A DNA stretch of 51,816 bases from contig CAZMTN010000003.1 of NCBI GenBank assembly GCA_964569655.1, positions 1-51,816 on the forward strand, written 5' to 3'. Position 1 is the stretch's first letter; the number at the start of each line of letters is the position of its first letter. Shown here in pieces: positions 6,630-50,771 of the stretch. The translations under genes were made by a program, and so were the position numbers. The notes beneath the pieces were generated by a model. It was given only the letters and a program-made list of their open reading frames with translations. It was not told the DNA's origin and did no database searches. Source of the stretch: an uncultured Candidatus Saccharibacteria bacterium (GTDB taxonomy: Bacteria > Patescibacteriota > Minisyncoccia > Phycocordibacterales > Phycocordibacteraceae).

Positions 6630-7560
6630 GTTTTCCGTACCAGACCTGGCCACTCCGATCGAGCGCAAACAGGCGGGCATCGCGCTCGTCATGCTGGCGG
6701 TCATCCTCGGCGCGACCGCCTACTTCTTCCCAAAGAGGGAGGAGCCGGCGCCGGTCATCGTGCAGGAGAGGCCGGCGCCGGACGCATACAAGGACGTTTC
6801 AGTACTCGGCAAGTCCGCCATCGTCTACGACCTCACCACCGGCCACACCCTATTCGAGCGAAACGCGGACGCGCAGCTCCCGCTCGCGTCCCTCACCAAG
6901 CTCCTCTCCGCATACGCCGCGAGCGAGGCTCTCGCGCCGTCTACCTTGGTCACCATTGATGCTGAGGACCTCGCCGCCGAAGGGGACAGCGGCCTCCAGA
7001 TCGGGGAGGTGTTCGCGCTCAAGGACATCGCGAAGCTCGCGCTCGTCGCTTCCTCGAACGATGCCGCCGAAGCCATCACCAACGCCGCGAGAGAGAACCG
7101 CTCCCTCACCACCGAGGACCTTCTCAAGAACGCAGCGGCATCGGTGCACCTTTCCCAGACGTATGCCGTGAACGGCACCGGCCTCGACGAGAACGAGTCC
7201 GTGTCCGGCGGCTACGGCTCAGCGCACGATGTCGCCCGCCTCGCGGGCGCTATCCTCGCGAAGGCACCGGAGCTCGCGAAGGCCACCACCGAGCACACCG
7301 TTACCGTGCAGTCCCTGAACGGCATCACGCACACGCTCCCGAACACGGATCCGTCGGTCGACCGCTTCCCGAATCTGCTCCTCTCGAAGACCGGCTTTAC
7401 GGACCTTGCCGGCGGGAACCTCGTCGTCGTATTCGATGCCGGGCTTAATCACCCGGTCGCGGTAGTAGTGCTCGGCTCCACGCGCGAGTCCCGCTTCACG
7501 GACGTGGAAACGCTCATCCACGCGACGCTCGCGCACTTCGCTAAGATTTCACCATCATGA
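6622..7560 (+). CDS. D-alanyl-D-alanine carboxypeptidase (S11), membrane anchored
   Basis: N-terminal TM; SxxK (ASLTK), SxN (SSN), KTG (KTGFT). Confidence 0.9.
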   Translation: MYKFSVPDLATPIERKQAGIALVMLAVILGATAYFFPKREEPAPVIVQERPAPDAYKDVSVLGKSAIVYDLTTGHTLFERNADAQLPLASLTKLLSAYAASEALAPSTLVTIDAEDLAAEGDSGLQIGEVFALKDIAKLALVASSNDAAEAITNAARENRSLTTEDLLKNAAASVHLSQTYAVNGTGLDENESVSGGYGSAHDVARLAGAILAKAPELAKATTEHTVTVQSLNGITHTLPNTDPSVDRFPNLLLSKTGFTDLAGGNLVVVFDAGLNHPVAVVVLGSTRESRFTDVETLIHATLAHFAKISPS

Positions 7561-8616: not shown

Positions 8617-9717
8617 ATGCGGATACTCGGAGACCGCTTATTCGTGCTCATCGTGACCGTCCTCGTGCTTGGCGGTCTCGCCACGTTCTTCTCCGCGTCA
8701 CTGGGACTCCTCGCGCGCGAGAGTGCGTCCCTCACCCGCATCGCTACCTCGCAGCTCCTTCTCGGCCTCATCCCGGGGATCATCGCGCTCATCGGCATCC
8801 GCTTCATGCCGAGCAAATGGCTTGCGAAGGCGACCATCCCGTTCTATGCCTTCACCCTCTTCCTTACGCTGCTCGTATTCACGCCGCTCGGCATCCACGC
8901 GAACGGCGCCAGCCGCTGGCTCGATTTCGGGTTCACCACGCTCCAGCCAAGCGAGTTCCTGAAGATCGGGGTCATCCTCATGCTTGGGGGATATCTCTCG
9001 TTCGCAGGGAAGGGTATCAGCAACATCCGCACCGGGCTCATCCCGTTCATCGGCATCGTGGGGGTCCCGGTGTTCATCCTCCTCATGCAGCCCAACACCT
9101 CGACCGTGCTCGTGCTCGGGGCGACCTGCGCTGTCATGTATTTCCTCGCGGGCGCTCCCTTGCGGGACTTTGCGATACTCGCGGTGATCGCCATCATCGG
9201 CCTTACGACGCTCGTCATGATGCGCCCATACCTCATGAACCGCGTGCAGACATTCCTCGACCCGTCAGCAGACGCGTTTAACTCGGGGTACCAGATCCAG
9301 CAGTCCCTCATCGCCATCGGGTCAGGCGGCATCATGGGCCGCGGGTTCGGTCAGAGCGTCGAGAAGTTCAACTACCTGCCCGAGGCCGTGAACGACTCGG
9401 TATTCGCCGTCTTCGGCGAGGAGTTCGGGTTCGTGGGGGCCACTGCGCTCATCCTCCTCTTCCTCGCGTTCGCCGCCCGGGGCTTCCGTATCGCGAGCGA
9501 AGCCGGGACGGCCGCTGGCGCCTATATAGCCGTGGGGCTCACCCTCATGATCGTGCTCTCGGCATTCCTCAATATCGGGGCCATGCTGGGCGTCCTGCCC
9601 CTTACCGGCCTCCCATTACCCTTCGTGAGCCACGGCGGAACAGCCCTTTTCGCGGCATTGTGCGCCGTGGGCATCATTTTGAACGTCGCCGGGGGCAAGA
9701 AGAAGGCGAACCGCTAG
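8617..9717 (+). CDS. ftsW: SEDS family peptidoglycan polymerase (FtsW/RodA)
   Basis: NGASRWL, QPSEFLK, GYQIQQSL-AIGSGG, LPEAVNDSVF, TGLPLPFVSHGG; follows mraY. Confidence 0.88.
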   Translation: MRILGDRLFVLIVTVLVLGGLATFFSASLGLLARESASLTRIATSQLLLGLIPGIIALIGIRFMPSKWLAKATIPFYAFTLFLTLLVFTPLGIHANGASRWLDFGFTTLQPSEFLKIGVILMLGGYLSFAGKGISNIRTGLIPFIGIVGVPVFILLMQPNTSTVLVLGATCAVMYFLAGAPLRDFAILAVIAIIGLTTLVMMRPYLMNRVQTFLDPSADAFNSGYQIQQSLIAIGSGGIMGRGFGQSVEKFNYLPEAVNDSVFAVFGEEFGFVGATALILLFLAFAARGFRIASEAGTAAGAYIAVGLTLMIVLSAFLNIGAMLGVLPLTGLPLPFVSHGGTALFAALCAVGIILNVAGGKKKANR

Positions 9718-10516: not shown

Positions 10517-11617
10517 ATGGCCCTACCCGAGCACGGCGTATCCATCGTGTCCTTGGTCGGCGCGCTCATCGAAGAGGCGTGCGCGGAACGCTGCTCCGAT
10601 CTCCATATCGATCCCGTACCTGACGGCGTCCGGGTGCGGATGCGCGCGGACGGCATCCTGCTCGATCGCCATGCGCTCCCGGCTCACGTGCACCAGGAGA
10701 TCATCTCCCGCATCAAGATACTGTCCGGTCTCCGCACCGACGAGCATAACGCGCCGCAGGACGGGCGTTTCCGCTACACCTTCGCGGACGGGAAGTGGGT
10801 GGATATCCGCGTCTCGGTGATGCCCACCTATCACGGGGAGAATGCCGTGCTGCGGCTCCTCGCGAACGCCGCAGAGGAGCAGACACTCGCCTCGCTCGGC
10901 TTCGGCGAGGAGGACCAGGCCCGGATCAGGAAGGCGCTCGAGCGCCGAGGCGGCATGATCCTTGCGACCGGCCCCACGGGCTCCGGAAAGACCACGACGC
11001 TTTATACCCTCATCCAGATGCTCAACCGACCGGATGTCTCCATCATGACGGTGGAGGACCCCATCGAGTACGCCATGGAGGGCGTCCGCCAGGTCCAAGT
11101 GAACCATCGGACCGGCCTTACGTTTGCCTCCGGCCTCCGCTCCATGCTGCGCCAGGATCCGGACGTGATCATGGTGGGCGAGGTACGGGACGCGGAGACG
11201 GCCGGCATCGCGGTGAATACCGCGCTCACGGGCCATCTCCTTCTCACGACGCTCCACACCACTAACGCAGCTACGTCCATCCCGCGCCTCCTCGACATGA
11301 AGGTGGAGCCGTACCTTGCCGCATCCACGATGCAGCTCGCCATCGGGCAGCGCCTCGTGCGCCGCATCTGCAAGGAATGCGCGAAGGAAGGATGCGATGC
11401 CTGCAAGGGTTCCGGGTATCGCGGGCGCATTTCCATAAACGAGGTATTAGTAGCCACCGACCGTATCCGGGACGCCATAGCCCGGAGAGCATCAGCGGGA
11501 GAGATACAGGGCATCGCGACAGAGGAAGGCATGCGGACCATGCTCGAGGACGGCATGCAAAAGGCGGAACGTGGAGAGACCACCCTCGAAGAAGTGCTGC
11601 GCGCCGTCCATGAATAG
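10517..11617 (+). CDS. GspE/PilB-family pilus assembly ATPase (short form)
   Basis: SDLHIDP, PQDGRF, Walker A GPTGSGKT, VEDPIEY, LRQDPDVIMVGEVRD, TGHL-LTTLH, CxxC..CxxC. Confidence 0.95.
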   Translation: MALPEHGVSIVSLVGALIEEACAERCSDLHIDPVPDGVRVRMRADGILLDRHALPAHVHQEIISRIKILSGLRTDEHNAPQDGRFRYTFADGKWVDIRVSVMPTYHGENAVLRLLANAAEEQTLASLGFGEEDQARIRKALERRGGMILATGPTGSGKTTTLYTLIQMLNRPDVSIMTVEDPIEYAMEGVRQVQVNHRTGLTFASGLRSMLRQDPDVIMVGEVRDAETAGIAVNTALTGHLLLTTLHTTNAATSIPRLLDMKVEPYLAASTMQLAIGQRLVRRICKECAKEGCDACKGSGYRGRISINEVLVATDRIRDAIARRASAGEIQGIATEEGMRTMLEDGMQKAERGETTLEEVLRAVHE

Positions 11618-12686
11618 CCTCCTCGACACGCTCCGCGCGCCGCGCCTCTCTCAGAAGCAGCAGGCACTCTTCATGCAGCGGCTCTCGTTCCTCATCAGCT
11701 CCGGCATGCCGCTCACGCAGGGGCTTTCCATACTGGAATCCCAGGAGCGCGGAGGAAGCGTCCGGGAGGCTCTCAGGCAGGTGAGCCGGTCCGTTGAGGA
11801 AGGGAAGACGCTCGGGGAAAGCATGGCGCCATACCCCTACGCCTTCACCCGGTTCTCCATCGAAGTCATCCGGGTCGGGGAGTCGAGCGGGACGCTCGCG
11901 GAGAACCTGGAGTACCTTTCCAGGGAACTGAGGAAGCGGGCAGAGCTCCGCACGAAGCTCGTGGGGTCGCTTATCTACCCGGGACTCATTACCGGAGCCA
12001 CCATCCTTCTGTCCGCATCCCTCATCCTGTTCATCTTCCCGAAGATCGTCCCGGTGTTCTCGAGCACCGGCATGGAGCTGCCCTGGTCCACGCGCTCATT
12101 GCTTGCGGTGAGCTCCTACCTCAGCGAGTGGGGTCTCGTCACGCTCATCGCGGTTGTCGCTGCTGCGACAGCTCTTATCCTGGTTCATCGGCGCTACGAG
12201 CGCATGCAGAGGTATTCCGCGTGGCTCACCGGGCATGTGCCTGTCCTTGGCGGGATGGTGCAGGCGTACCACCTCTCGAACCTCACGCGTACGCTCTCGC
12301 TGCTCCTTACGAGCGGCATGCCGCTCGCGCTGGCGCTTCCGGGCACCGCGCGCTCCGTGACGCATATCCTGTTCCGGGATGCGCTTATGGAGATATCCGA
12401 GGCTGCAGTACGCGGCGAGGGCATGAGCCTGCATATCCAGAAGCGGAGGGATCTCTTCCCGGACATGGTGGGGCATATGCTCATGGTCGGGGAAACGAGC
12501 GGGACGCTGCCGGAGACGCTTTCCTACGTATCCGCGTTCTATGAGGCAGAGCTCGATGAGCGCTCGAAGCAGCTCTCTACGCTTATAGAGCCCGCGCTCA
12601 TGATCCTCATGGGGCTCATCGTCGGATTCGTCGCCGTATCCATGATCCTGCCGATATACGGCATAACCGAGCACCTGCATGGCTAA
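11610..12686 (+). CDS. GspF/PilC-family pilus platform protein
   Basis: Two T2SSF repeats (GE-SG-L twice), LIYP, LIEP-LM, ILPIY; overlaps the ATPase stop. Confidence 0.93.
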   Translation: MNSLLDTLRAPRLSQKQQALFMQRLSFLISSGMPLTQGLSILESQERGGSVREALRQVSRSVEEGKTLGESMAPYPYAFTRFSIEVIRVGESSGTLAENLEYLSRELRKRAELRTKLVGSLIYPGLITGATILLSASLILFIFPKIVPVFSSTGMELPWSTRSLLAVSSYLSEWGLVTLIAVVAAATALILVHRRYERMQRYSAWLTGHVPVLGGMVQAYHLSNLTRTLSLLLTSGMPLALALPGTARSVTHILFRDALMEISEAAVRGEGMSLHIQKRRDLFPDMVGHMLMVGETSGTLPETLSYVSAFYEAELDERSKQLSTLIEPALMILMGLIVGFVAVSMILPIYGITEHLHG

Positions 12687-13089
12687 GGGATTCACGCTCA
12701 TCGAGTGCGTCCTTGTGATAGGCCTCCTTGCGGCTGTAGCTGGCATAGGGTTATTCGGGACGCTAAGCATGTACCGGTCTTCCTCGCTCGAGGATGAACG
12801 AGACCTCCTGGTCGCACTCCTTGAGCGGGCCCGCAGCCATGCGCTTGCGAATCTATACCAGTCATCGCATGGCGTATGCGCAGGAGAGGGGCGGTACGTC
12901 GTATTCCGAGAGCCGTTCATCCTTGAGGAGGAAGCGCAGCAGGGAGTTGCTTCTGACCTGCCGCCTTGTCCAGAGGGCATCGTCTTTACGGCTCCATCCG
13001 CTACGACATCACCCCTAGAGATCACCCTTTCCAACGGGGAGGACTCTGCAGTTATCACCATAAACAGGGAGGGGGCAATCGGGTGGTAG
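12679..13089 (+). CDS. Prepilin-like protein (type IV pilin N-terminal methylation motif)
   Basis: MAKG|FTLIE plus hydrophobic helix. Confidence 0.88.
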   Translation: MAKGFTLIECVLVIGLLAAVAGIGLFGTLSMYRSSSLEDERDLLVALLERARSHALANLYQSSHGVCAGEGRYVVFREPFILEEEAQQGVASDLPPCPEGIVFTAPSATTSPLEITLSNGEDSAVITINREGAIGW

Positions 13090-22772: not shown

Positions 22773-24035
22773 ATGATCGACGAGCGCGAAGCATTCGAAG
22801 AGTCAGAGAAATCACCAGTGCTGCGCGGCGGCATCATGTATGCCGTCGTCGCGGTCATCTGCTTCGGCGCAGGCCTCTATATGGGCGGCGGCAGCGCGCA
22901 CGACATCTTCTCGAACGTGCCGCTCATCGGCGGGCAGTTCCTCGACGCGACGCCGGCCGAGGACGCTGACCTCTCTGATTTCTGGCGCGCCTGGAACACC
23001 CTCGACGCGCGATTCGTCGAGACGCATGCCTCCTCCTCCGCGCCTACCAGCAAGGAGAAGATCTGGGGCGCTATCCAGGGCCTCGCAGCATCCTACGGGG
23101 ACCCCTACACCACCTACATGCCGCCTGAGGAGGCGAAAATCTTCGAGGAGACCATCTCCGGGAACTTCTCAGGCGTGGGCATGGAGATCGGCGTGCAGGA
23201 CGACGTCCTCACGGTCATCGCGCCGCTCAAGGGCACGCCAGCCGACAGGGCAGGCATCCGGACCGGGGACAAGATACTGACCATCGACGGCGCTCCGACC
23301 GATGGCATGTCTACCGATGAAGCGGTATCGATCATCCGCGGCGAGAAGGGGACCACCGTCACGTTCTCCATCTACCGGGACGGGTCGCTGCTTGAAATCG
23401 CGGTGGTGCGCGACACCATCGTCGTGCCGCAGATTGAGCAGGATTTTGACGCCGCCACCGGCGTCTACTACATCGCGCTCTACGAATTCAGCGGCACCTC
23501 GTCCGGTATGTTCGCGGAGGCGCTCCAGGAATTCAAGGCGTCTGGTTCGACGAAGCTCATCATCGACCTGCGCGGGAATCCGGGCGGATACCTGGCCGCG
23601 GCGGTGAATATCGCAAGCCACTTCCTCCCGAAGGGCACGGTCATCGTGACGGAGGACTACAAGGGCAAGCAGGAAAACGAGGAGCATCGGAGCCTTGGCA
23701 CGGGCGGGGTGCCCTCCGGCATCGAGACGGTCATCCTCATGAACGGAGGATCAGCGAGCGCATCGGAGATCCTTGCCGGGGCGCTCCGGGACAACGGCGT
23801 CGCGACCATCGTTGGCACCCGCTCTTTCGGTAAAGGGTCGGTGCAGGAACTCGTCGACATCGATAAGGGCTTCCTGAAGGTGACGGTCGCCCGCTGGCTC
23901 ACTCCGTCCGGGAAGAACATCTCGGACGGCGGCATCGAGCCTGATATCCTGGTAGAGCTCACGGAAGCAGACATCACTGGGGGCGTGGATGCGCAGCGCG
24001 AGCGGGCGGTGCAGTTCCTATCCACAGGGAAGTAG
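22773..24035 (+). CDS. ctpA: Carboxyl-terminal processing protease (S41, PDZ-containing)
   Basis: DPYT-Y, F-GVGMEI, PDZ, IDLRGNPGG-L, SASASEI-AGAL-D, SFGKGSVQ, W-TP-G. Confidence 0.93.
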   Translation: MIDEREAFEESEKSPVLRGGIMYAVVAVICFGAGLYMGGGSAHDIFSNVPLIGGQFLDATPAEDADLSDFWRAWNTLDARFVETHASSSAPTSKEKIWGAIQGLAASYGDPYTTYMPPEEAKIFEETISGNFSGVGMEIGVQDDVLTVIAPLKGTPADRAGIRTGDKILTIDGAPTDGMSTDEAVSIIRGEKGTTVTFSIYRDGSLLEIAVVRDTIVVPQIEQDFDAATGVYYIALYEFSGTSSGMFAEALQEFKASGSTKLIIDLRGNPGGYLAAAVNIASHFLPKGTVIVTEDYKGKQENEEHRSLGTGGVPSGIETVILMNGGSASASEILAGALRDNGVATIVGTRSFGKGSVQELVDIDKGFLKVTVARWLTPSGKNISDGGIEPDILVELTEADITGGVDAQRERAVQFLSTGK

Positions 24036-24199: not shown

Positions 24200-24979
24200 T
24201 TAGATCCGATTACGCCGATCCGCGAAGAAGACGCGGATCAGCTTCCATAGTATGTAGATGACGAAAAGGAGAAGGAGGTAGAAGAGGAACTGGAGCTGGA
24301 ATACGAAGAGGAGGCCCTTGAGGAGGCCGCCCCAGGCGCGGTCCAGCATCCCTACGGCTGCGGCAGGGCTGTTATACGTGCTTGCGCCCAAGACCTGGGT
24401 GTCTGATGAAGCTTGGGGTGGGGCGGCAGCCTCCAGGCGCTCCTCTATATAAGCGATACCGGCCTCGCGGAGGCCTTCCGTAGCGGTCCCAAGGGACCCG
24501 AGGACGGTAGCCGCCTCCGGGGAGACGGAGGTGAGGTATGCAGAGGCGTCCTTGGCCAGGCGCTCGGCCTTGGTGGGCGGGGCAGGGGAGACGGAGACGG
24601 CGACCTTGGTGTTCTCTCCCTCTTGGAGGGTTAGCGTCTCCGAGGAGCCCTTCCGGTGCGCGTTACGTATGGAGACATGGATGTCATGGTCTCCCTCCTT
24701 CGCCTTCCATTCCACTGACACGATCCTGCTCTCCCGGCTGTCTAGGGAGAATTGCGCTGTTGCTACGTTCTCCGAATCTACCCAGAACGCTACCTCGCCC
24801 TCGATATCCGCCGAGGTGCTGTTGTATACAGGCGCATACAGCCGCACCGTATCTCCATCTTCGGGCGTGAAGTCGGAGAGCCATACCGACCCTGAGGGGA
24901 AACCCGCAGGAATGGACTGCGCGAATGCCGCGACAGGGAAGAGGAGAGACGCGAGGATGAGGAGTGCCGTGCGTGTCAT
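24200..24979 (-). CDS. Secreted/membrane protein with a CARDB-like Ig domain and C-terminal TM
   Basis: Signal peptide ending AAFA, beta-rich segment (GDTVRLYA-VYN, V-W-A-EGDH-I-V), Pro/Ala linker, TQVLGA, C-terminal TM with basic tail. Confidence 0.7.
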   Translation of the reverse strand: MTRTALLILASLLFPVAAFAQSIPAGFPSGSVWLSDFTPEDGDTVRLYAPVYNSTSADIEGEVAFWVDSENVATAQFSLDSRESRIVSVEWKAKEGDHDIHVSIRNAHRKGSSETLTLQEGENTKVAVSVSPAPPTKAERLAKDASAYLTSVSPEAATVLGSLGTATEGLREAGIAYIEERLEAAAPPQASSDTQVLGASTYNSPAAAVGMLDRAWGGLLKGLLFVFQLQFLFYLLLLFVIYILWKLIRVFFADRRNRI

Positions 24980-25147
24980 TAATGCGTTCTTAATACTCAA
25001 ACTGTAACACTTCGAAGGTGTGTGATTGCGAAATATCCACCCCGTTCTGGCAAGTGGATTGACTTACCCGTACATAGGCGCATAGTTCAAGGGTACAGGG
25101 GGCAGAGGGCACTTTAGATCGGGCTTTTACTTAGCTTACACATACTT

Positions 25148-28048
25148 ATGTCTATTCAGTTTGTCAGCGGAACAAGCGCAAAGGCGCTCGCTACCGCAGT
25201 TGCGATCGCGACACTCGCGTTCGCTCCTTTTACCAGCTATGCCGCACCGCTCGTAGTCACTCCAAGCGAGAACCAGGGATGGGAGGACTCATCAAGCGAT
25301 GGGGCTACCGTGTCCTTTGTTGCTGATGAAACGGCGTCAGGAGACGGGGCACTTCAGCTCGTTACGGCGGCTACCAACGAGTCGCGTGCGCACTACTCTC
25401 TTGAGGTTGACGACGTCCGCCTCACCGATGCTACGGATATCTCATACAGCACCAAGCAGGTGAGCGTGCCTGCAGTGGCCCAGACTTATGGGAACGCAAC
25501 GCTTCGCATCACCCTCGACCTCGACGGCGAAGCAGGGAGCGAGGAGGATCAGCTCATGTACGAGCCGTACTACAACGGCTTCGGAGGCAGCACCAACTGG
25601 GTTACTTACGACATCTCAAGCTCAAACGGCAAGTTCTGGTCAAACAGCGACACCCCTCGCACCTACAACGGATCTGCCCCTGCACAGAATGCCGGCGGAT
25701 ATGACACGAACTTCACCCTTGGCGACGTCCTTCATGACTTCCCAGAGGCAGTCGTTACTGAAATCGTCGTAAGCATGGGTACCTGGAACCCTGACCAGAC
25801 CATCCTCGTGGATGAGGTCGAGTTCAACGGAACCACCTACGATTTCGAGCAGGATCCTCCAGTACCGTTCGCGACGAACACCACTTCCGGAGAGGAGTAC
25901 ACCGACCTTGGGGAGGCAGTCGGTGAGGCCCTCGACGGCGAGACCATCCTCATTGAGGCGGGTACGCATACTGTCCCGGCAGGAACTATCACCATCAGCA
26001 AGGACATCACTATCATTGGAGAAGAGAACGCAGTCCTCCAGACTTCTGGAAGCGATGTCCTCTTCCGCATCAGCGCGAACGGCGTGACGATCGAGAATCT
26101 CACTATCGAGAAGACCGACGACAACGTCAGCCAGAACATCATCTCGATCCAGGGCAGCGACGCGTCTATCGTCCACAACCACTTCAAGGGTCGCTTCAAT
26201 ATTGGGGACAGCGAGACTACCCGCGCCCTCGAAGTCAGCACGACTAACGGCCTCCTCGTAGATAGCAACATCTTCGAGAACCTCCGCCAGCCTGCCTACG
26301 TGAACGACAACACCGTCGGAACGATCAGCAACAACTACACTACTGACACGAAGGGATGGGTCGTGGTGTCGAACTCTAACCTCACCTTCACCGATAACAC
26401 GTGGGGAACGAACGTTGTAGATATCGCCATCATCGCGGGAGGAAGCGACAACTACACCGACATCCTCGCCATGAGCGGGAACAACGATGGGGCAGTCATC
26501 ATCAACAAGTTCGCTCCGGTCCGCCAGACCGAGGCTTGGGTAAACGCATCGGCACCGAACGACAATGACGATGGCAGCTCTATTGTCCCGCTGAAGACGC
26601 TCGGCGCGGCTATGAGCCGCATCGTGAACGGCGGCACGATCCACCTCATGAGTGACATCACGCTCTCGTCCCAGCTCAACGTCAACAAGTCGGTCACCAT
26701 CGAAGGTAACGACCACCAGGTAACCGCGGACTTCTCCGGCGGATCTGTGGTCCAGATCATCACCGCGAACAACGTCACTATCAACGACCTCGTCGTAGAT
26801 GGCGGCGGCGCAGGGAAGAACAACCGCGGCATCAACGCCTACGTCGTTACCGGCGTCCTTCTCGACGGCGTCACCGTTCAGAACAACAACAAGAACGGCC
26901 TTGTCGTTAATGGCTCGACAGTCGTCGTGAACAACATCACGACCGACGGGAACGGCTGGGAAGCTATCGACGTGGACATGGGAGGCGGCGTTACCACACA
27001 GGCTCACCTCACGGTGAACGGCGTGAGCGTGCACCTCAACTCAGCTAAGGCGGCTATCCGCATCGACAACGTTACCAAGTCTCCGACCCCTACGGTCGTC
27101 GATACGAACGATCAGTACACCATCACCGAAACCAGCGAGATCATCAGGGACTACTTCCCGAAGAATGAGAACACAGAGACCGAGGAAGAATTCGAAGAAA
27201 CGACTACCAGTGGTGATGTGCAGGTCGATATTTACCTCCCAGAAGGAACCATCGTCACTGCAGACGCTGACTGGGACGGCATCATCAACGCTCCTATCGC
27301 AACCACGACTACCGTCACGGTAGACGGAGCAGAGACGGTCGTTACAGCAGCGATTACTGTCGGCTCTGACCTCTACACCCTCTACTTCGACCAGGCAGCG
27401 AAGATTACCTTCGAAGGACAAGTGAACACTCGCGCCGGCTGGATCAACCACGCGGGAGTATTCACTGAGATTACTACTGTTTGCGATGCAAACACTCAGG
27501 AATCTGCTGATAGCCAGCTCGGTACAGGTGAAGACTGCAAGATCGACGTAGGTGATGATCTCGTCGTCTGGACCAAGCACTTCTCGACCTTCATGACCTA
27601 CACTCAGACCAGTACCTCATCAGGAGGCAATGGCGGAGGGGGCAGTTCATCGAACAATGACGATGATGACAACGAAAGCACTGCAACTGACGGCTCAGTA
27701 GACGCAGGCGGGGAAGTCCTCGGTGCGGCGACCTTTGCCTTCACTACCGATATGACCATCGGCTCTACCGGCGAGGCCGTCATCGAGCTCCAGAAGATCC
27801 TCATCGCAGCCGGCCATCTCCAGATTGCCGCTCCGACCGGATATTTCGGCGAGCTCACGAAGGCAGCGCTCGTTAAGTGGCAGGTAGCGCACGGCGTTCC
27901 GGGAACCGGATACTTCGGCCCGCTCACCCGCGCGGCGATCAATGCCGCTGCACCGATGGAGAGCACGGAGACGCAGCAGAAGGTAATCGAGCTCATGCAG
28001 CAGCTGATCAAGCTCCTGCAGGAACTGCGAGACATGAAGAACAGCTAG
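25148..28048 (+). CDS. Large secreted surface protein: beta-sandwich, two parallel beta-helix regions, HFS domain, peptidoglycan-binding domain
   Basis: Signal peptide; Asn/Asp/Thr/Val-rich beta-helix-like repeats; WTKHFSTF; Ser/Gly linker; PG_binding_1-like V-ELQK-L...TGYFG-LTKAA-V-WQ-AHG...TGYFGPLTRA. Confidence 0.8.
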   Translation: MSIQFVSGTSAKALATAVAIATLAFAPFTSYAAPLVVTPSENQGWEDSSSDGATVSFVADETASGDGALQLVTAATNESRAHYSLEVDDVRLTDATDISYSTKQVSVPAVAQTYGNATLRITLDLDGEAGSEEDQLMYEPYYNGFGGSTNWVTYDISSSNGKFWSNSDTPRTYNGSAPAQNAGGYDTNFTLGDVLHDFPEAVVTEIVVSMGTWNPDQTILVDEVEFNGTTYDFEQDPPVPFATNTTSGEEYTDLGEAVGEALDGETILIEAGTHTVPAGTITISKDITIIGEENAVLQTSGSDVLFRISANGVTIENLTIEKTDDNVSQNIISIQGSDASIVHNHFKGRFNIGDSETTRALEVSTTNGLLVDSNIFENLRQPAYVNDNTVGTISNNYTTDTKGWVVVSNSNLTFTDNTWGTNVVDIAIIAGGSDNYTDILAMSGNNDGAVIINKFAPVRQTEAWVNASAPNDNDDGSSIVPLKTLGAAMSRIVNGGTIHLMSDITLSSQLNVNKSVTIEGNDHQVTADFSGGSVVQIITANNVTINDLVVDGGGAGKNNRGINAYVVTGVLLDGVTVQNNNKNGLVVNGSTVVVNNITTDGNGWEAIDVDMGGGVTTQAHLTVNGVSVHLNSAKAAIRIDNVTKSPTPTVVDTNDQYTITETSEIIRDYFPKNENTETEEEFEETTTSGDVQVDIYLPEGTIVTADADWDGIINAPIATTTTVTVDGAETVVTAAITVGSDLYTLYFDQAAKITFEGQVNTRAGWINHAGVFTEITTVCDANTQESADSQLGTGEDCKIDVGDDLVVWTKHFSTFMTYTQTSTSSGGNGGGGSSSNNDDDDNESTATDGSVDAGGEVLGAATFAFTTDMTIGSTGEAVIELQKILIAAGHLQIAAPTGYFGELTKAALVKWQVAHGVPGTGYFGPLTRAAINAAAPMESTETQQKVIELMQQLIKLLQELRDMKNS

Positions 28049-28066
28049 AGATTCCTATCTCTGGGG

Positions 28067-28097
28067 AAACGCCACCTTCGCGGGTGGCGTTTTTCTT
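28067..28097 (+). terminator. Intrinsic terminator
   Basis: AAACGCCACC/GGTGGCGTTT followed by a T-run. Confidence 0.8.
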
Positions 28098-28119
28098 AAT
28101 GCACGATATAATCGCGGTT

Positions 28120-29106
28120 ATGACAAGGAAGCGGCGTTCCCGCGTGAAGCACTACCTCCTCCCGCATCGGGGCAACGGGTACAAACCCCAGCTCTTCGCC
28201 GCGTCCTCTATCGCTATCGTCATCGCCGCAGTGGTGATCCTCCAGGGGCTCTACTTCTTCACCACCCAGGTGGTGTTCAAGCAGTCCGACTTCCTTGCGA
28301 GCGTGCTCCCGGGAGCGCTCGTCGCGCTCACCAACACCGATCGCGCGGAGAATAACCTTGGTGCACTCATCGAGGACCAGAGGCTTGCCGCGGCTGCGCA
28401 GCTCAAGGCTGATGACATGGCCGCGAAGGGCTACTTCGCGCATGTTACCCCTGAGGGGTACCAGCCATGGCACTGGCTTGAACAGGTCGGCTACGACTAC
28501 ACCTACGCCGGTGAGAATCTCGCCGTGAACTTCACGGATTCCGAGGAGGTCGAGGAAGCGTGGATGAACTCGCCGACGCACCGGGCGAATATCGTGAAGC
28601 CGGAGTACACCCATGTCGGCATCGCGACCGCGAACGGCACATACAAGGGAAAGGAGGTGACGTTCGTGGTGCAGATGTTCGCGACAAAACCCGGAGAAGT
28701 GGCTCCTCCCGAACCTGAGGAGGCCGTGATCGCGACCGCGGATGAGGAACCGGCTGCTCCGGTCGCCGAGGAGGCGGAGGCACCTACGGTTGCCGCAGGG
28801 ATCGTCGCCGAGACCCAGGTCCTCGGAGAGGAGACGACGGCCGCTATCGAGCAGGCAGCCACCTCGCCGACCCGGACCATCGTCTATATCCTTTCAGGAC
28901 TGGCCCTGCTCATCCTCCTCGTGCTCATCGTCGCGTTCTTCGTGCACCTCAAGACGCAGTACGTGCAGGCCCTCGGCGGCGGCGTCGCGCTGCTTGCGGT
29001 GGTGGTCGGATTCATGCTCTTCAACGCATCGAACCTCGAGCAGGTAGAGGTTCCAGAAGCCAGCCAATCCGCCTCGGTCATCAACGCCTTTCCAGGGTTG
29101 CGGTAG
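28120..29106 (+). CDS. CAP (SCP-like) domain membrane protein
   Basis: LTN-DR, KADDMAAKGYFAH, YTYAGENLA, WMNSPTHRANI, VVQMF; N- and C-terminal TMs; start follows TATAAT (28107-12). Confidence 0.9.
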   Translation: MTRKRRSRVKHYLLPHRGNGYKPQLFAASSIAIVIAAVVILQGLYFFTTQVVFKQSDFLASVLPGALVALTNTDRAENNLGALIEDQRLAAAAQLKADDMAAKGYFAHVTPEGYQPWHWLEQVGYDYTYAGENLAVNFTDSEEVEEAWMNSPTHRANIVKPEYTHVGIATANGTYKGKEVTFVVQMFATKPGEVAPPEPEEAVIATADEEPAAPVAEEAEAPTVAAGIVAETQVLGEETTAAIEQAATSPTRTIVYILSGLALLILLVLIVAFFVHLKTQYVQALGGGVALLAVVVGFMLFNASNLEQVEVPEASQSASVINAFPGLR

Positions 29107-29965: not shown

Positions 29966-30238
29966 TTACGCGACGTCTACGACCTTCTTGCGGGTGATGC
30001 GTCCGTCAAAGCCGGTCTTGCGGCGCTCGCGGAAAGAAACGGTGCCCGCGGCAGATGCGTAGAGGGTGTGGTCCTTGCCCACGCGGACATTCTTGCCGGC
30101 CTCGATCTTCGTGCCGCGCTGGCGGACGATGATCATGCCTGCGCGGACCGCCTCGCCATCGGCGAGCTTAACGCCGAGGTATTTCGGGTTTGAAGTATTA
30201 AGGTTTTTCGCTGAGCCGCCCGCTTTTGTTGATGCCAT
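29966..30238 (-). CDS. rpmA: 50S ribosomal protein bL27
   Basis: [34 protein letters not shown]. Confidence 0.97.
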
Positions 30239-30257
30239 AGTGGTATGCTTTTGTGTG

Positions 30258-30686
30258 ATGACTATAGCAGAAGGCGGGGGACCAGGCAAGGCGGCCCTGG
30301 AGGGCTCCCTGGGGCCGGTCCTCGACCGTATCCCGAGGCCATACCTCTACCTGGGCATCCTGGCCCTGTCCTGCTCTACGGCCTTCGGCCTGGGGCATAT
30401 GGAGGGCAGGGGAGTAGCCCCGGACGAGGGAATCTCCATTTCACAGCTTGCGACCAGCACTCCGGAGTTCATGCGGGGCCAGGCGGCGGCAGCTGCCGCG
30501 GCAGTACCTGAGGACACTATGCCGGCCGGCGGGGAAGTGGTGGCATCGAAGAGCGGCACAAAGTACTACTTCCCCTGGTGCGGGACGGTGAAGCGCATCA
30601 AGGAGGAGAATAAGATCTGGTTCCCTAATAGAGAAGCGGCCGAAGCTGCCGGGTATGAGCCTGCGGCTAACTGCAAGGGGATGTAG
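30258..30686 (+). CDS. Membrane-anchored protein with a C-terminal Ada-like metal-binding domain
   Basis: TM near the N-terminus; [13 protein letters not shown]...[21 protein letters not shown]. Confidence 0.7.
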
Positions 30687-34488: not shown

Positions 34489-35832
34489 TTAAAGGTAGGA
34501 CATCGGATTCAAGTATCCGGTCGGAGGAGATACGGGCATGGTCGCGTTAGAGCAGCCTGTCCTGCTGCCGTCCCCGCGGTATTGGCCGAGCGACATGATC
34601 TGCACGCCACTGGCTGCGTACACGCCGAAATGAAGGTGCGGGCCGGTCGCGTAGCCGGTCATGCCTGAGTTCCCTATCACCTGCCCCATGCTTACGGATT
34701 GTCCGGACGATACGTTGATCGATGAGAGGTGCGCATACAACGTCGCGAGCCCGTTCGGATGCTTGATCATGACCCACTTGCCAAACGAGTAGCATCCCGG
34801 CACCGCGTCCGTATTGCCGATGCCGAGTACCGAGCCTGAAGCAGCGGCCTGGACTGGCGTACCGACCGGAGAGCCCATATCGATGGCGTTGTGGCCGTTT
34901 CCGTTATAGATCTGCGGATTCGCGGTTGAGAAAGGAGTATTCCCGAAATACTGCGTGATACAGAAATTATTCCCCAGCGCGGCGGCCTTACCTTTGCAGG
35001 TAGCCATGAACTCGGCAGAATACGGCCATGCGAGCACGCCCGTTCCGATGGCCGGAACGCTCGCCGATCCGACCGACGTGAGGCTTGCTTCGAGCGCATT
35101 AAGCGCAGCCTCGAACGACTTCTGCTCGGCGCGCTTCTTCGCGATGAGGTCCTGATAGACCGTCTCCTGATTCTTCGTCTGCGCGAGAAGCTTGTTCTTC
35201 TCGGCGATGGCGATATCAAGCTGCTTCTTCTCGTTCGCGAGCTTAGTGTTGAGCTCGGTGAGCTGCGACTTCTGCTTGTCCTCTGCGGTCTTCTGCTCCG
35301 AGAGGTCTTCCTTGGCGCTCGTGAGATCGGCGGTGTGCTTCTTCAGCGCCTCGTTGAGCGCCATGTTAGCGTCCACCGCGGACCAGAGGTCCCCGAGGCT
35401 CTGGGAGGAGAAGACGCGCTCTGAGAGCGATGTCGTGTCCGCCTCGGCGATCTCTCGTATGGACTGCGCGAGTATCTGGCGGTCGAGCTCTATCTCGTAC
35501 TCGGTCTGAGTGATCTCGCCCGAGAGCTGTTTCAGCTTCAGGTTGCTCGCGGAAATCTGATTCTGGGTCACCTTGAGCTGTGACGTGGTCTGCGCGCGAG
35601 AGGTATCGATGGTCTTGATGGTGGTCTGCAGCGTCTGCTTCTGGGTCCCGAGGATATTCAGCTGGTTCTGGAACGTGGCGATCTCATCCTCGATAGCCTT
35701 GATCTTGGCGTTGTGCTCTTCGATCTGGTCTTGGATGTCGCTCTGGGCCTGCGCCGGAGAGACGAAGCACGCCAGGAGAAGGAATGCGGCGCTCAGGTAA
35801 GCGAATTGGAGCGCGTGCGTGCGAAAGGTCAT
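34489..35832 (-). CDS. M23 metallopeptidase with long coiled coil (EnvC/MepM-like)
   Basis: Signal peptide, heptad coiled coil, HNAID (HxxxD), YAHLS, GYATGPHLHF (HxH). Confidence 0.92.
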   Translation of the reverse strand: MTFRTHALQFAYLSAAFLLLACFVSPAQAQSDIQDQIEEHNAKIKAIEDEIATFQNQLNILGTQKQTLQTTIKTIDTSRAQTTSQLKVTQNQISASNLKLKQLSGEITQTEYEIELDRQILAQSIREIAEADTTSLSERVFSSQSLGDLWSAVDANMALNEALKKHTADLTSAKEDLSEQKTAEDKQKSQLTELNTKLANEKKQLDIAIAEKNKLLAQTKNQETVYQDLIAKKRAEQKSFEAALNALEASLTSVGSASVPAIGTGVLAWPYSAEFMATCKGKAAALGNNFCITQYFGNTPFSTANPQIYNGNGHNAIDMGSPVGTPVQAAASGSVLGIGNTDAVPGCYSFGKWVMIKHPNGLATLYAHLSSINVSSGQSVSMGQVIGNSGMTGYATGPHLHFGVYAASGVQIMSLGQYRGDGSRTGCSNATMPVSPPTGYLNPMSYL

Positions 35833-35853
35833 CAGCACCATTGTACGACAGAG

Positions 35854-37289: not shown

Positions 37290-38444
37290 TTATGCGGCAG
37301 CCTGCTCAGGCGTCTCGTGCGTGAGCGCGATGCGGATTGCCTCTTCGGCGATGAGGCGCGCGGCGTTCCCGGGCATGAAGGCGCTTCCCTTCTCTGCCAT
37401 GCGCGCCGACAGCGCCTTGTCCGACACGATGCGCCGCGCCTCGGATACGAGCACGTTCGGCGTGAGGTTGGTCTCCTCGAGCACGGCAGCGCCGCCCGTA
37501 TGCGCGTACGCGTACGCATTAGTGCGCTGGTCGTGGCTCACCGTCTCCGGGATAGGGATGAGGATAGCCGGCTTCTTCCAATGCGAGATCTCCGCAATGG
37601 CCGTGGCGCCGGCGCGCGAGATGATGAGGTCTGCGACTCCCGACGCGCGACGCATCGCGTCCGCGGAAAGATACGCGAACGGATGGTAGCGGCTCGCGTG
37701 CGGATTATCCTGCAGCACCACCTTGCTCATGCTCTCCACCGTACCGATCTCCTTCTTCCCTGTCTGATGGATGACGTTCGCGAATGCGACCATATCCGAA
37801 AGACCCGCGAGCACGGTCTCGTTCATGCGCTGCGAGCCGGTCGAGCCGCCGAGAATGAGGACGGTGGGCGCGTCATCGAGACCGAGCTCCTGGCGAGCGC
37901 CCTCAGGCGCGGGACCCGTAAGCTCCTTCCTGATCGGGATGCCCACGAGCGCGATCTTCCCGCGTACCTTCTCCGGGAAGTAAGAAGCTGCTCCCGGAAA
38001 CGCGATGCCGATGCGTTCCGCATGCTTCGCGGCAAGGAGGTTCGCGCGGCCCGGCTTCGAATCCGATTCATGGACGATAACCGGGATGCCGATGAGGCGA
38101 GCCGCGAGCGTCACCGGGACGCTGCCGAATCCGCCGCGAGAGACGATGACGTCTGGGTAGATGCGGAAGAGCTCGTACACCGCGTCTACGAACCCGAAGA
38201 TGGTGTGGGCGACGTCGATGACGTTCTGGATCGAGAAATAGCGGCGGACCCTGCCCGCATCGATGCGAACGAAGACCATATTGTTCTGGAAGAGGGCTTC
38301 CTGGTCGTACGGCTCCGGCGCAAGGTAGTAGAGCTTGGGGGTGACGAGTTGCCGCTCCCCGACGACATCGCGGATAGCCTCAGCTATAGCGATGAGGGGG
38401 TAGAAATGACCGCCGGTTCCGGCTCCCGTGAACACAATCTTCAT
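37290..38444 (-). CDS. murG: Lipid II GlcNAc transferase
   Basis: TGAGTGGHFYP, GGFGSVP, HESD-PG-AN, G-PIR, LILGGS-GS, ISRAGA, HDQR-NA. Confidence 0.95.
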   Translation of the reverse strand: MKIVFTGAGTGGHFYPLIAIAEAIRDVVGERQLVTPKLYYLAPEPYDQEALFQNNMVFVRIDAGRVRRYFSIQNVIDVAHTIFGFVDAVYELFRIYPDVIVSRGGFGSVPVTLAARLIGIPVIVHESDSKPGRANLLAAKHAERIGIAFPGAASYFPEKVRGKIALVGIPIRKELTGPAPEGARQELGLDDAPTVLILGGSTGSQRMNETVLAGLSDMVAFANVIHQTGKKEIGTVESMSKVVLQDNPHASRYHPFAYLSADAMRRASGVADLIISRAGATAIAEISHWKKPAILIPIPETVSHDQRTNAYAYAHTGGAAVLEETNLTPNVLVSEARRIVSDKALSARMAEKGSAFMPGNAARLIAEEAIRIALTHETPEQAAA

Positions 38445-38490
38445 ACGTATAAGGATACTACCATTCCCGGCCCTATACGCCTCCGGGCTG

Positions 38491-38976
38491 TTAGCGGGTA
38501 GCTGAGATCTCTTCCCCGAGCTCCGCGGCTGGCGCGGATACCGTATAGCGACCCCCTGCATCCGCCTCTACCGTGTAGCCGGTATCATAGGTCGCCGCGG
38601 AATCCCATGATGCGCCGTCCGCCTTCGGATCCACCGGAAGCTGGGATGGGATATAGGTCGGCGTGAGGCAGCTCAGGTCCACTGAATCAGCGCCGGAGCT
38701 CTTGATGGCGAGCGTCTCCCCTTCCTCGATGGCGGGACAGGTGTACGTCGTACCGTCGTACTCGAAGCTGCCTTCGAATACGCCCTTGTTATCCGCGATG
38801 CGCTGGCCGATAGCGTTCAGGATGGTGGTAACGTTGCTGGTTCGCTGGCTATTGCGCGCCTGGGCGAACTGTCGTGACGGATTGAGCGCGACGAGCACGA
38901 TCGCCGCGAGCACCGCGATGATGCCGATGACGACAAGCACTTCGATAAGCGTGAATCCCCTATTTCGAGACGTCAT
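38491..38976 (-). CDS. Type IV pilin (major-pilin-like)
   Basis: RG|FTLIEVLVVIGIIAVLAAIV, NP-RQF-ARN, LPVDP, Cys pair. Confidence 0.92.
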   Translation of the reverse strand: MTSRNRGFTLIEVLVVIGIIAVLAAIVLVALNPSRQFAQARNSQRTSNVTTILNAIGQRIADNKGVFEGSFEYDGTTYTCPAIEEGETLAIKSSGADSVDLSCLTPTYIPSQLPVDPKADGASWDSAATYDTGYTVEADAGGRYTVSAPAAELGEEISATR

Positions 38977-50735: not shown

Positions 50736-50771
50736 GCGTCTATCGTATCGCAAACGGCTAGCGAGGGCGAA

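Follow-up and report, generated by a model that had tools for sequence, protein, structure and literature searches.

A conserved VLG motif ahead of the anchors of CPR surface proteins lies next to CAP-domain membrane protein or sortase genes and points to an undescribed mounting step

Introduction

Bacteria of the CPR (Patescibacteria) make up a large part of bacterial diversity and live attached to other cells. To our knowledge, almost nothing is known about how they construct their surfaces. Here we analysed a stretch of 51,816 nucleotides (the window) from an uncultured Candidatus Saccharibacteria bacterium, in which three adjacent genes encode envelope proteins carrying the same short motif, (Q/E)VLG(A/E), at the end of a linker. 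A first-pass annotation of this DNA had regarded the motif as a sorting, processing or assembly signal of the envelope and had pointed to an upstream S41 protease gene. Why would otherwise dissimilar proteins carry the same few residues just ahead of their anchors, and what could recognise them?

Results

Genes were called by a simple longest-ORF heuristic. The cluster neighbour is an S41 C-terminal processing peptidase with PDZ and S41 domains (22773-24035, forward strand), recognised by both Pfam and NCBIfam. Protein A (24200-24979, reverse strand; the ORF covers 24200-25000 and the database gene call, P0001, has 259 aa) consists of a signal peptide, a CARDB-like domain, a linker, the motif, a spacer of ~22 residues and a C-terminal TM helix (~24218-24331, residues ~224-261) ending in RRNRI. 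A hydrophobic helix with a basic tail is the arrangement seen in sortase substrates, and protein A is alone among the three in having it. It has no Pfam match itself; the CARDB match (E 6e-6) was found in its orthologue from locus L009. A word-indexed homology search with protein A returned only the protein itself, and phmmer identified 13 orthologues in related loci, usually located 1-3 genes upstream of the CAP gene described below. Protein A also contains an additional weaker VLG.

Protein B (25148-28048, forward strand) is composed of a signal peptide, a beta-helix passenger, a linker, the motif, a PG_binding_1 domain (PF01471; 27767-27940, residues 874-931, E 9e-12 in Pfam) and a C-terminal helix. 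A NosD match to residues 254-347 is weak, scoring far under the NCBIfam cut-off. Gene C (28120-29106, forward strand, with 28120 as the start in the database gene call) encodes a CAP-domain membrane protein, hereafter the CAP protein, in which TM1 is followed by an extracellular CAP/SCP domain (~28324-28680; PF00188, E 4e-19 in Pfam), a linker with the motif, TM2 (~28867-28947) and TM3 (~28963-29034). The AlphaFold2 model likewise has three TM helices. The CAP protein terminates in a pair of TM helices and a tail that is acidic or neutral. The family alignment shows no variation in the GENLA and NSPxH motifs, and the top Foldseek matches are the uncharacterised bacterial SCP proteins 4IFA, 4D53 and 4H0A (probability 1.00). 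The domain searches agree with the identities assigned in the first-pass annotation (CARDB-like, PG-binding, CAP and upstream S41, the first through the L009 orthologue) and with its claim that the three motif-bearing proteins have no other domain in common.

Read directly from the DNA, the first motif copy, DTQVLGAST (24377-24403, reverse strand, core QVLGA at 24397-24383), closes the Ala/Pro/Ser linker of protein A; the second, GGEVLGAAT (27707-27733, forward strand, core EVLGA at 27713-27727), closes the Gly/Ser/Asn/Asp linker of protein B; and the third, ETQVLGEET (28810-28836, forward strand, core QVLGE at 28816-28830), closes the Pro/Glu/Ala linker of the CAP protein. All three pentapeptides are exactly where they had been reported, and each ends a low-complexity stretch, as had also been reported. 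The only long low-complexity linkers of secreted proteins in the window are these three and a look-alike at 30066-30686. A six-frame scan of the window with [QE]VLG[AE] gave six matches, three of them antisense to cysS, gltX and scpB. Among the 42 ORFs with coding-like GC3 (13,429 aa, 5000 shuffles), three matches were observed against 0.12 expected, with P(>=3) = 2e-4 serving only as a guide because the pattern was set post hoc. The three copies are encoded by unlike codons (CAGGTCTTGGGCGCA, GAAGTCCTCGGTGCG and CAGGTCCTCGGAGAG), so the similarity resides at the protein level; a DNA-level repeat or recombination site is thereby ruled out. Examples of the motif as 12-15-mer peptides are SVDAGGEVLGAATFA, SSDTQVLGASTYN and VAETQVLGEETTA.

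The motif is a real and conserved feature. In 120 CAP orthologues, which are 44-59% identical, V is found in 115, L in 119 and G in 116, with the neighbouring linker columns being variable. G-x-VLG-[AT]-[AE]-T is retained in 10 of the 14 members of the protein A family, and two others have VEG and ILG variants. The motif is under selection, with VLG nearly invariant in the otherwise variable CAP linker and kept in the A family. Enrichment was assessed in 80 related Parcubacteria loci chosen via their CAP gene. The pattern G.VLG[AEVTSI][SETAQ] occurs 54 times against 1.2 expected (~45-fold) in proteins that begin with a signal peptide or TM helix, the CAP and A families excluded, and 12 times against 0.9 expected in the remaining proteins; permuted tripeptides, used as a control, showed no excess in these loci. 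The motif thus extends across the lineage. Conservation among orthologues and enrichment in secreted proteins, on both of which the first-pass annotation had staked its proposal, are thus borne out. The logo of 133 instances gives the consensus G-[EQ]-V-L-G-A-[SE]-T, with T at +5 in 66 of them, and in the CAP family VLG-[AV]-E-[VT]-G predominates.

The motif lies outside the cytoplasm, where it closes low-complexity stalks at their C-terminal end, with the anchor immediately behind it. It is found in the final 40% of the protein in 65 of 75 instances, and an anchor always follows, be it PG_binding_1 of one of two subtypes, a TM helix, or [LF]PxTG/LAxTG with a TM helix and a basic tail. Among the genes occupying the slot of protein B upstream of CAP, 44 of 73 encode the motif; its distance to the C-terminus is mostly 44-155 aa, with clusters near 77 and 106-126 aa and an outlier at 585 aa. 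The spacer of protein A to its TM helix varies among orthologues, and no TM helix follows the motif in protein B. The anchor can be exchanged: the position upstream of CAP is taken in L035 by a protein with VLG, TPNTG and a TM helix together with a sortase, replacing the protein with VLG and a PG-binding domain. The passenger can also be absent, since proteins of 127-175 aa consist of a signal peptide, linker, VLG and PG-binding domain (L063, L064, L067 and L068), and other small carriers of a linker, VLG and sorting signal (L051, L076, L077 and L149).

The motif is disordered, with pLDDT < 50 in both AlphaFold2 models (protein B and the CAP protein) beside confident domains; the PG-binding helices that follow it in protein B reach pLDDT > 90. 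The PG-binding fold does not include it. In protein B it occupies residues 856-860, and the PG_binding_1 envelope begins at residue 874. No motif precedes the PG-binding domains of Clostridium baratii and Planococcus. Among the best 150 matches of an exhaustive PG-binding profile search, which returned multi-repeat PG-binding proteins, G.VLG occurs in two, in neither case ahead of the domain. A search with the PG-binding part of protein B gave 16 short matches, of which only the two closest have the motif. We also considered a lipobox, which we rejected because Cys never directly follows the Gly and the motif is hundreds of residues from the N-terminus, and autoproteolysis by an N-to-O acyl shift, rejected because Gly is followed by Ala, Val or Glu, none of them a nucleophile.

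Genomic linkage of the motif to CAP and sortase genes was examined in two samples. Synteny counts from the 80 CAP-selected loci are biased, and the sole independent sample is a set of metagenome loci selected solely by a DNA pattern for GG[QE]VLGA[ST]T. About 30 of its ~41 genuine instances have LAxTG, LGxTG or LPxTG within 0-12 residues, then a TM helix and a basic tail; the contigs combining GGQVLGAST with a sorting signal were assigned to Microgenomates. The gap between VLG and the pentapeptide ranges from 0 to 14 residues, most commonly with VLGAST abutting L[AG]xTG. At least 14 of these motif-selected loci have a sortase as the very next gene, and in 12 a CAP gene lies directly 3' of the motif gene. 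CAP is directly downstream in 8 of the 9 loci of the PG-binding type, and it directly follows a substrate-sortase pair in L088, L090, L151 and L158. Where sortase-type cassettes come with sufficient flanking DNA, a CAP gene is missing from the vicinity in about half of them. Class-F-like sortases are found near the CAP gene in related Parcubacteria loci; no sortase is encoded within the 52-kb window. The CAP protein lacks its own motif in 18 loci where the neighbours retain theirs, and joint loss from the CAP protein and its neighbours shows a weak association (odds ratio 3.5, p = 0.03, without phylogenetic correction).

Unrelated look-alikes of the motif were seen in DUF1501-like and SecDF proteins. 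The pattern GEVLGAST[YF]xF had zero matches in viral contigs, and a search of plasmids for the full VLGAST-LAATG signal gave nothing meaningful. A parallel with 'VLGARR' repeats before LPXTG in Lachnospiraceae was considered and dropped; the one Roseburia LPXTG match in a plasmid collection lacks such repeats.

Discussion

Since the motif stands outside any folded domain, it must be recognised in trans. We propose that it is a conserved extracytoplasmic short linear motif at the foot of a disordered stalk that spans the wall, read in trans, with the CAP/SCP domain of gene C as the likeliest reader, and we assign this reading a probability of roughly 40%. The choice of CAP is supported by its linkage to the motif in loci that were chosen by the motif alone. 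According to this model, the CAP protein would be placed in the membrane, at the interface with the wall, where it would bind the V-L-G strand of surface proteins that have just been exported and hold the stalk base while the anchor engages. Engagement might mean that the PG-binding domain docks, or that a sortase encoded nearby cuts LAxTG/LPxTG and links the protein to the wall. The motif copy carried by the CAP protein could be a self-ligand that competes with clients or mediates oligomerisation; in the AlphaFold2 model this copy is not docked onto the CAP domain. Both the CAP domain as the reader and docking rather than cleavage as the mode of recognition are what we infer here. The presence of the motif in proteins with no passenger to release favours recognition over shedding.

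The first-pass description of an envelope sorting or assembly signal remains apt in that the motif is conserved, enriched in secreted proteins and located before three kinds of anchor, including true sortase signals; as to the mechanism, we offer only the inference above. That annotation had treated the CAP protein as a mere carrier of the motif. In our data, CAP and sortases are much stronger genomic partners than S41.

The rival explanations differ in what they take the few residues to be recognised by. An envelope peptidase might cut at V-L-G|A and so detach the stalk with its passenger from the anchor, either to mature the protein or to shed it in a regulated way; the candidates would be the CtpA-like S41 protease, the CAP domain itself and a type I signal peptidase. 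The motif is indeed disordered, accessible and situated between passenger and anchor. Ser-Lys-dyad peptidases (families S26 and S41) prefer small residues, which V at P3 and G/A at P1/P1' would suit. Tandem copies near the anchor, not seen in the window proteins, occur in ten relatives' loci (L029, L041, L051, L069, L071, L076, L077, L131, L144 and L150), and the order VLG-protein, CAP, S41 recurs in L022, L023, L033, L041 and L106, with S41 also standing beside the cluster of the window. Nevertheless, we consider a cleavage site unlikely. S41 is present in just 6 of 81 CAP-selected sequences (the window and 5 of the 80 related loci) and in 1 of ~41 motif-selected loci, a linkage so low that the S41 partner suggested by the first-pass annotation was rejected as the main hypothesis. 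The passenger-less PG-binding carriers keep the motif, cleavage of the CAP protein would free nothing because TM1 tethers its CAP domain, and the residues after G vary (A/V/E, then S/E/A/T). A role in cis, by which the hydrophobic V-L between glycines would directly touch peptidoglycan or the membrane surface, or the motif would set an O-glycosylation boundary or sequon of the Ser/Thr-rich stalk through S/T at +4 and +5, strikes us as improbable. It would fit the constant location at the level of the wall or anchor, the S/T that follows the motif in most instances, and upstream linkers rich in Ser/Thr/Gly/Pro, which resemble the glycosylated stalks known from Actinobacteria and Firmicutes. However, the CAP family does not conserve S/T behind the motif, an 8-residue peptide would hardly bind the wall by itself, and such a role would not explain why the genes are so tightly linked to that for the CAP protein.

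Might the motif instead be an extension of the sortase signal, that is, an upstream recognition element (exosite ligand) of CPR sortases, with the other anchors as a second use or a matter of descent? In its favour, most of the metagenome instances have a sorting signal within 0-12 residues, a dedicated sortase is the next gene in at least 14 loci, and in L092 the motif is fused upstream of a sortase catalytic domain. Against it, no LPXTG-like pentapeptide follows the motif in protein A, protein B or the CAP protein, none of which is matched by TIGR01167, nor in most Parcubacteria instances; the variable spacing to the pentapeptide speaks against one rigid binding groove, and the eight CAP-paired loci of the PG-binding type have no sortase on the sampled, often short contig. 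Taken together, we regard this explanation as improbable too, if anything a shade more so than a role in cis. Far less credible than any of these is that there is no independent feature, the motif being a chance or compositional coincidence or the N-terminal edge of PG_binding_1. Short motifs are easily over-read, as the look-alikes above illustrate, and the main PG-binding subtype has its domain at a constant distance from the motif (VLGASTYNFT..L..GS). The results already contradict this explanation through the excess over expectation in the window and in its relatives, the occurrence of the motif, at variable spacing, ahead of another PG-binding subtype as well as of sortase signals and TM anchors, the 15 residues between the motif and the Pfam envelope, the low pLDDT, and the PG-binding domains elsewhere that do without it.

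Returning to the CAP protein as the putative reader, the occurrence of the motif next to genes for CAP-domain membrane proteins or sortases points to an undescribed step in the mounting of surface proteins. We found no description of a CPR pre-anchor motif in the literature searched and no database model for it; in particular, no NCBIfam model covers it. A more far-reaching and correspondingly more doubtful proposal is that the VLG motif and the three-TM CAP protein constitute an unrecognised CPR surface-protein mounting system, in which CAP would act as a receptor or enzyme that recognises a universal peptide ahead of the anchor and passes its clients to the sortase or the wall. We know of no peptide ligand of bacterial CAP domains, a fold for which we are aware of no established bacterial function; if our reading is true, VLG would be the first molecular ligand for them. 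The CPR surface proteome would then be defined by a simple sequence rule: a low-complexity stalk, G-x-VLG-A-S/T-T and an anchor would allow the wall-anchored surface proteins of CPR bacteria to be listed. One pathway would link three anchor types, with the CAP-domain membrane protein and the divergent sortases as concrete candidates for its machinery.

How does the motif relate to known systems? Sortase signals (LPXTG/LAXTG with a TM helix and a basic tail; TIGR01167) are likewise short extracytoplasmic C-terminal peptides beside the anchor of monoderm surface proteins, and in the Microgenomates-type contigs the motif abuts a genuine signal of this kind, with the cognate sortase as the next gene. 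Unlike them, the CPR motif stands ahead of the pentapeptide as an element in its own right and is also used with non-covalent PG_binding_1 anchors and with TM anchors, neither of which needs a sortase. The PPEP-1/Zmp1 sites beside the LPXTG anchors of Clostridioides difficile adhesins offer another parallel, being short linear motifs, sometimes in tandem, between a functional domain and its anchor that a secreted, genome-encoded enzyme recognises in trans; recognition in trans is what we predict for the CPR motif too. Their scissile bond is Pro-Pro, in contrast to V-L-G; the S41 candidate is weakly linked, and the CPR motif is also present in proteins devoid of a passenger. In PEP-CTERM, PGF-CTERM and GlyGly-CTERM, a signature motif stands immediately before a TM helix, and a dedicated enzyme (exosortase, archaeosortase or rhombosortase) removes it. 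Proteins A and B have no tripartite signal of the PEP-CTERM/PGF-CTERM type and no NCBIfam match to one, and the CPR motif is separated from any TM helix by 20-30 residues or by a whole domain and stays constant while the anchor changes. It does resemble the 'choice-of-anchor' families and C-terminal sorting domains of TIGRFAMs/NCBIfam, since homologues swap their anchor type (as in L035) and protein A ends with a TM helix and a basic cluster.

For the CAP protein itself, the nearest comparison is with DalA and YkwD, which share the CAP fold of gene C. Its NCBIfam scores are far under the respective cut-offs (54 vs 200 for DalA, 113 vs 171 for YkwD), and it differs from DalA in having three TM helices and a VLG linker of its own. 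DalA of Rhodobacter sphaeroides is a CAP-like outer-membrane lipoprotein of a diderm that binds peptidoglycan non-covalently, and its authors proposed that it is a scaffold or activator for wall transpeptidases (PMC10470522). This is the kind of role that we suggest for the CPR CAP protein.

A shared VLG motif in three envelope proteins

The three pentapeptides that the first-pass annotation had placed at the ends of low-complexity linkers were confirmed at exactly the same positions by direct reading. QVLGA occupies 24397-24383 (-) in the CARDB-like protein A (266-aa ORF 24200-25000; 259 aa in the database gene call), EVLGA occupies 27713-27727 (+) in the 966-aa surface protein B (ORF 25148-28048), and QVLGE occupies 28816-28830 (+) in the gene for a CAP-domain membrane protein with three TM helices (CAP protein); the database call of this last gene begins at 28120. 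All three copies stand at the end of a low-complexity linker, and the codons differ among the three copies, indicating that the resemblance is at the protein level. A six-frame scan of the window matched [QE]VLG[AE] six times, including three matches antisense to cysS, gltX, and scpB. Among the 42 ORFs with coding-like third-position GC, three copies were observed versus 0.12 expected, a number reached in 1 of 5000 shuffles, which serves as a guide only because the motif was defined post hoc. The secreted proteins of the window have no other long low-complexity linkers except for a look-alike at 30066-30686 (+), a TM protein with an Ala-rich linker running into an Ada_Zn_binding-like Cys domain (Pfam, E = 8e-4). 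This look-alike resembles GGEVLGA with Val-Ala for Leu-Gly, was left out of the motif count, and could have diverged from a relative of the motif or be similar by coincidence. In protein A, a weaker second VLG (AATVLGSLGTAT) stands at about ORF residue 165, ~37 residues upstream of the main motif in a predicted helical or Ala-rich segment.

Domain searches agreed with the earlier assignments for the three proteins and the upstream gene: PG_binding_1 at the C terminus of protein B, a CAP domain in the product of the third gene, an S41/PDZ C-terminal processing peptidase upstream, and CARDB, which was matched by a protein A orthologue. For the CAP gene, the longest ORF begins with GTG at 27877 and overlaps gene B (+) by ~170 nt; with the database call (P0002, 328 aa, MTRKRR... 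from 28120), the overlap is gone. The window, with a GC content of ~60% that is high for Patescibacteria, also contains type IV pilus genes (T2SSE, 10517-11617; T2SSF, 11571-12686; pilins, 12679-13089 and 38491-38976). The full set of wall genes, comprising S11 carboxypeptidase (6622-7560), FtsW (8617-9717), M23 peptidase (34489-35841), MurG (37290-38561), and PBP (49074-50753), indicates that the organism makes peptidoglycan.

Conservation and enrichment of the motif among Parcubacteria

The CAP protein has thousands of relatives. In an alignment of the best 120 (full length, 44-59% identical), the linker that joins the CAP domain to TM helix 2 differs in both length and sequence from protein to protein, and the motif columns are nearly constant (V, 115; L, 119; G, 116 of the 120 sequences), with [ST][QRE] preferred before and [AVE][EQ] after them. 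For protein A, a word-indexed homology search gave no matches; phmmer identified 13 orthologues in the fetched loci, usually 1-3 genes upstream of the CAP gene. G-x-VLG-[AT]-[AE]-T is kept in 10 of the 14 family members, and two further members have a VEG or ILG variant. The motif is thus conserved in the orthologues of both families, the lack of which the first-pass annotation had named as grounds for abandoning a signal function.

Using the CAP alignment, we fetched 80 loci (~1.3 Mb) from named Parcubacteria/Paceibacteria genomes, including Kaiser-, Zambryski-, Nomura-, Adler-, Lloyd-, Giovannoni-, Harrison-, and Colwellbacteria, as 20-kb neighbourhoods, in which 1310 ORFs were called by a simple longest-ORF rule. 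With the CAP and A families excluded, proteins that begin with a signal peptide or TM segment contained G.VLG[AEVTSI][SETAQ] 54 times versus 1.2 expected, as anticipated for a signal of secreted proteins, and the remaining proteins contained it 12 times versus 0.9 expected. These counts depend on simple heuristics for gene calling and signal-peptide/TM prediction and partly reflect synteny because the loci were chosen through the CAP gene. Many of the 12 matches in the remaining proteins appear 5'-truncated, or secreted but missed by the signal-peptide filter. Permuted tripeptides gave no comparable excess in the 80 loci. The logo of 133 instances reads G(-2), [EQ](-1), V, L, G, A, [SE], T, preceded by Ser/Thr/Gly/Ala/Pro-rich and followed by ordinary sequence.

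Within these loci, 65 of 75 strict instances fall in the C-terminal 40% of their protein, and the motif is always followed by an anchor. This anchor is PG_binding_1 (one subtype has fixed spacing, VLGASTYNFT..L..GS, and the other contains Cys and is variably spaced), a TM helix at the C terminus, or an [LF]PxTG signal that continues into a TM helix and basic tail. The passenger domains are mutually unrelated (beta-helix, DUF11, CARDB, DUF642, Ig-like, fn3, polysaccharide deacetylase), some proteins carry tandem copies, and 44 of the 73 genes immediately upstream of CAP encode the motif. In L035, the slot upstream of CAP is occupied by a VLG + TPNTG + TM protein and a sortase, which replace the usual VLG + PG-binding protein; the anchor is swapped and the motif is kept.

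Motif-sortase cassettes in metagenomes

We also scanned a metagenome collection with degenerate DNA for GG[QE]V[LF]GA[ST]T and read 80 returned loci. About 41 of 68 VLG matches were genuine, lying in a long ORF behind low-complexity sequence, and the others were chance matches or unrelated families (DUF1501-like, SecDF, GC-rich non-coding frames). In ~30 genuine instances, LAxTG, LGxTG, LPxTG, or VPNTG follows within 0-12 residues, then a TM helix and a Lys/Arg tail, as in GGQVLGAST-LAATG-YSSQVLLTLLGLGIISLGVWQAIKVLQAEKA; a PG_binding_1 domain follows in ~9. With a sortase HMM, the gene directly after the motif gene was identified as a sortase in at least 14 loci. One of them, L125 (3-2905, +), contains a tandem pair of cassettes; in both, a surface protein with GG[EQ]VLGA[ST]T-[LM]AA[TA]G + TM at its end precedes a sortase gene of its own, suggesting one dedicated sortase per substrate in Microgenomates-like contigs. 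L092 (792-2198, +) encodes one polypeptide that starts with a signal or TM segment, continues through a Cys-rich and fn3-like passenger and two VLG motifs, and then has a sortase catalytic domain (E = 4e-9 to NCBIfam sortase_fam), so that the motif also stands ahead of an enzyme of the anchoring pathway. The sortases reached no NCBIfam class cut-off, and those of Parcubacteria are closest to class F.

Contig taxonomy was taken from CAP protein homology and two exact-sequence look-ups, in which one motif-bearing substrate belonged to Candidatus Roizmanbacteria and the cluster of one neighbouring CAP protein had a Candidatus Woesebacteria member. These sequence matches point to Microgenomates as the source of at least some cassettes, which, together with the Parcubacteria loci, would make the motif common to both large CPR groups. 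The ORF of L078 (141-911, +) stops nine residues past the motif (...GSVLGAATEVSTGVLD*), directly before a sortase gene, as either a frameshifted sorting signal or a natural truncated form. Five GC-rich non-CPR contigs (L100, L104, L110, L140, L162) encode DUF1501-like proteins with a conserved GGGVRGGQV[LF]GATT, an unrelated look-alike and a false positive in a naive proteome-wide scan; SecDF proteins (L101, L118) have GGQVLGATTLQDL.

A disordered motif outside the PG-binding fold

In the AlphaFold2 model of the CAP protein (30-sequence alignment), the CAP domain is confident and three TM helices are present; pLDDT is <50 across residues 215-248, which include the motif and make no contacts. 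The best structural matches of this model are uncharacterised bacterial SCP proteins. In the model of the last 147 residues of protein B, the PG-binding helical bundle is confident and the motif has pLDDT <50. The Pfam PG_binding_1 envelope begins 15 residues past the motif, which is absent from the PG-binding domains of Clostridium and Planococcus and from 148 of the best 150 matches in an exhaustive PG-binding profile search. These data make the VLG peptide a conserved short linear motif of a disordered, extracytoplasmic region and imply that it is recognised in trans. Membership in the PG-binding domain and a chance origin were both excluded.

Possible recognition by the CAP protein or proteolytic processing

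The constant motif, the variable anchor, and the recurrent CAP neighbour, with a sortase where a sorting signal is present, led us to propose the CAP protein as the reader of the motif. Its ectodomain would bind the stalk base at the V-L-G strand and hold clients in position at the interface of membrane and wall as the anchor engages. In the metagenome sample, where CAP linkage was not built into the sampling because loci were chosen by motif, the three-TM CAP protein is encoded immediately downstream of the motif gene in 8 of 9 PG-binding-type loci; the CAP gene directly follows the substrate-sortase pair in L088, L090, L151, and L158 and is nearby in L124 and L149. Assuming an approximately single-copy CAP gene and several hundred genes per genome, this linkage is far beyond chance. 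Against a CAP reader count the many sortase cassettes without a nearby CAP gene, the 18 loci in which the CAP protein has lost its motif and the neighbouring proteins retain it, and the AlphaFold2 model of the CAP protein, in which its own motif is not docked.

The main rival is a protease site. Val at P3 and Gly/Ala at P1/P1' suit Ser-Lys-dyad peptidases (S41, S26), tandem copies occur, and an S41 gene recurs beside the cluster in a minority of genomes. It was located close to CAP in only 6 of 81 sequences selected through the CAP gene (the window and 5 of the 80 loci) and in one motif-selected locus. Recognition is favoured over shedding because the motif is kept in minimal proteins with nothing to release, consisting only of a signal peptide, short linker, VLG, and PG-binding domain, or of a linker, VLG, and sorting signal, and because the CAP domain would still be held by TM1 after any cleavage in the CAP protein. 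The only studied CAP-like bacterial envelope protein that we found, DalA, likewise favours recognition: it binds peptidoglycan, and its authors propose a transpeptidase scaffold or activator (PMC10470522). The motif could also be an upstream exosite of the sortase signal or a cis-acting wall-contact or glycosylation boundary.

Comparison with known surface signals

The motif would work as sorting and anchoring signals do and belong to the protein surface-anchoring signals. It is represented in no Pfam or NCBIfam model, and we found no description of it in the literature. It differs from the LPXTG signal in that the window proteins have neither the pentapeptide nor an NCBIfam match, and from PEP-CTERM-type tripartite signals in its long and variable spacing to the TM helix. 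PPEP-1 sites resemble the motif in position and repetition, whereas their chemistry differs.
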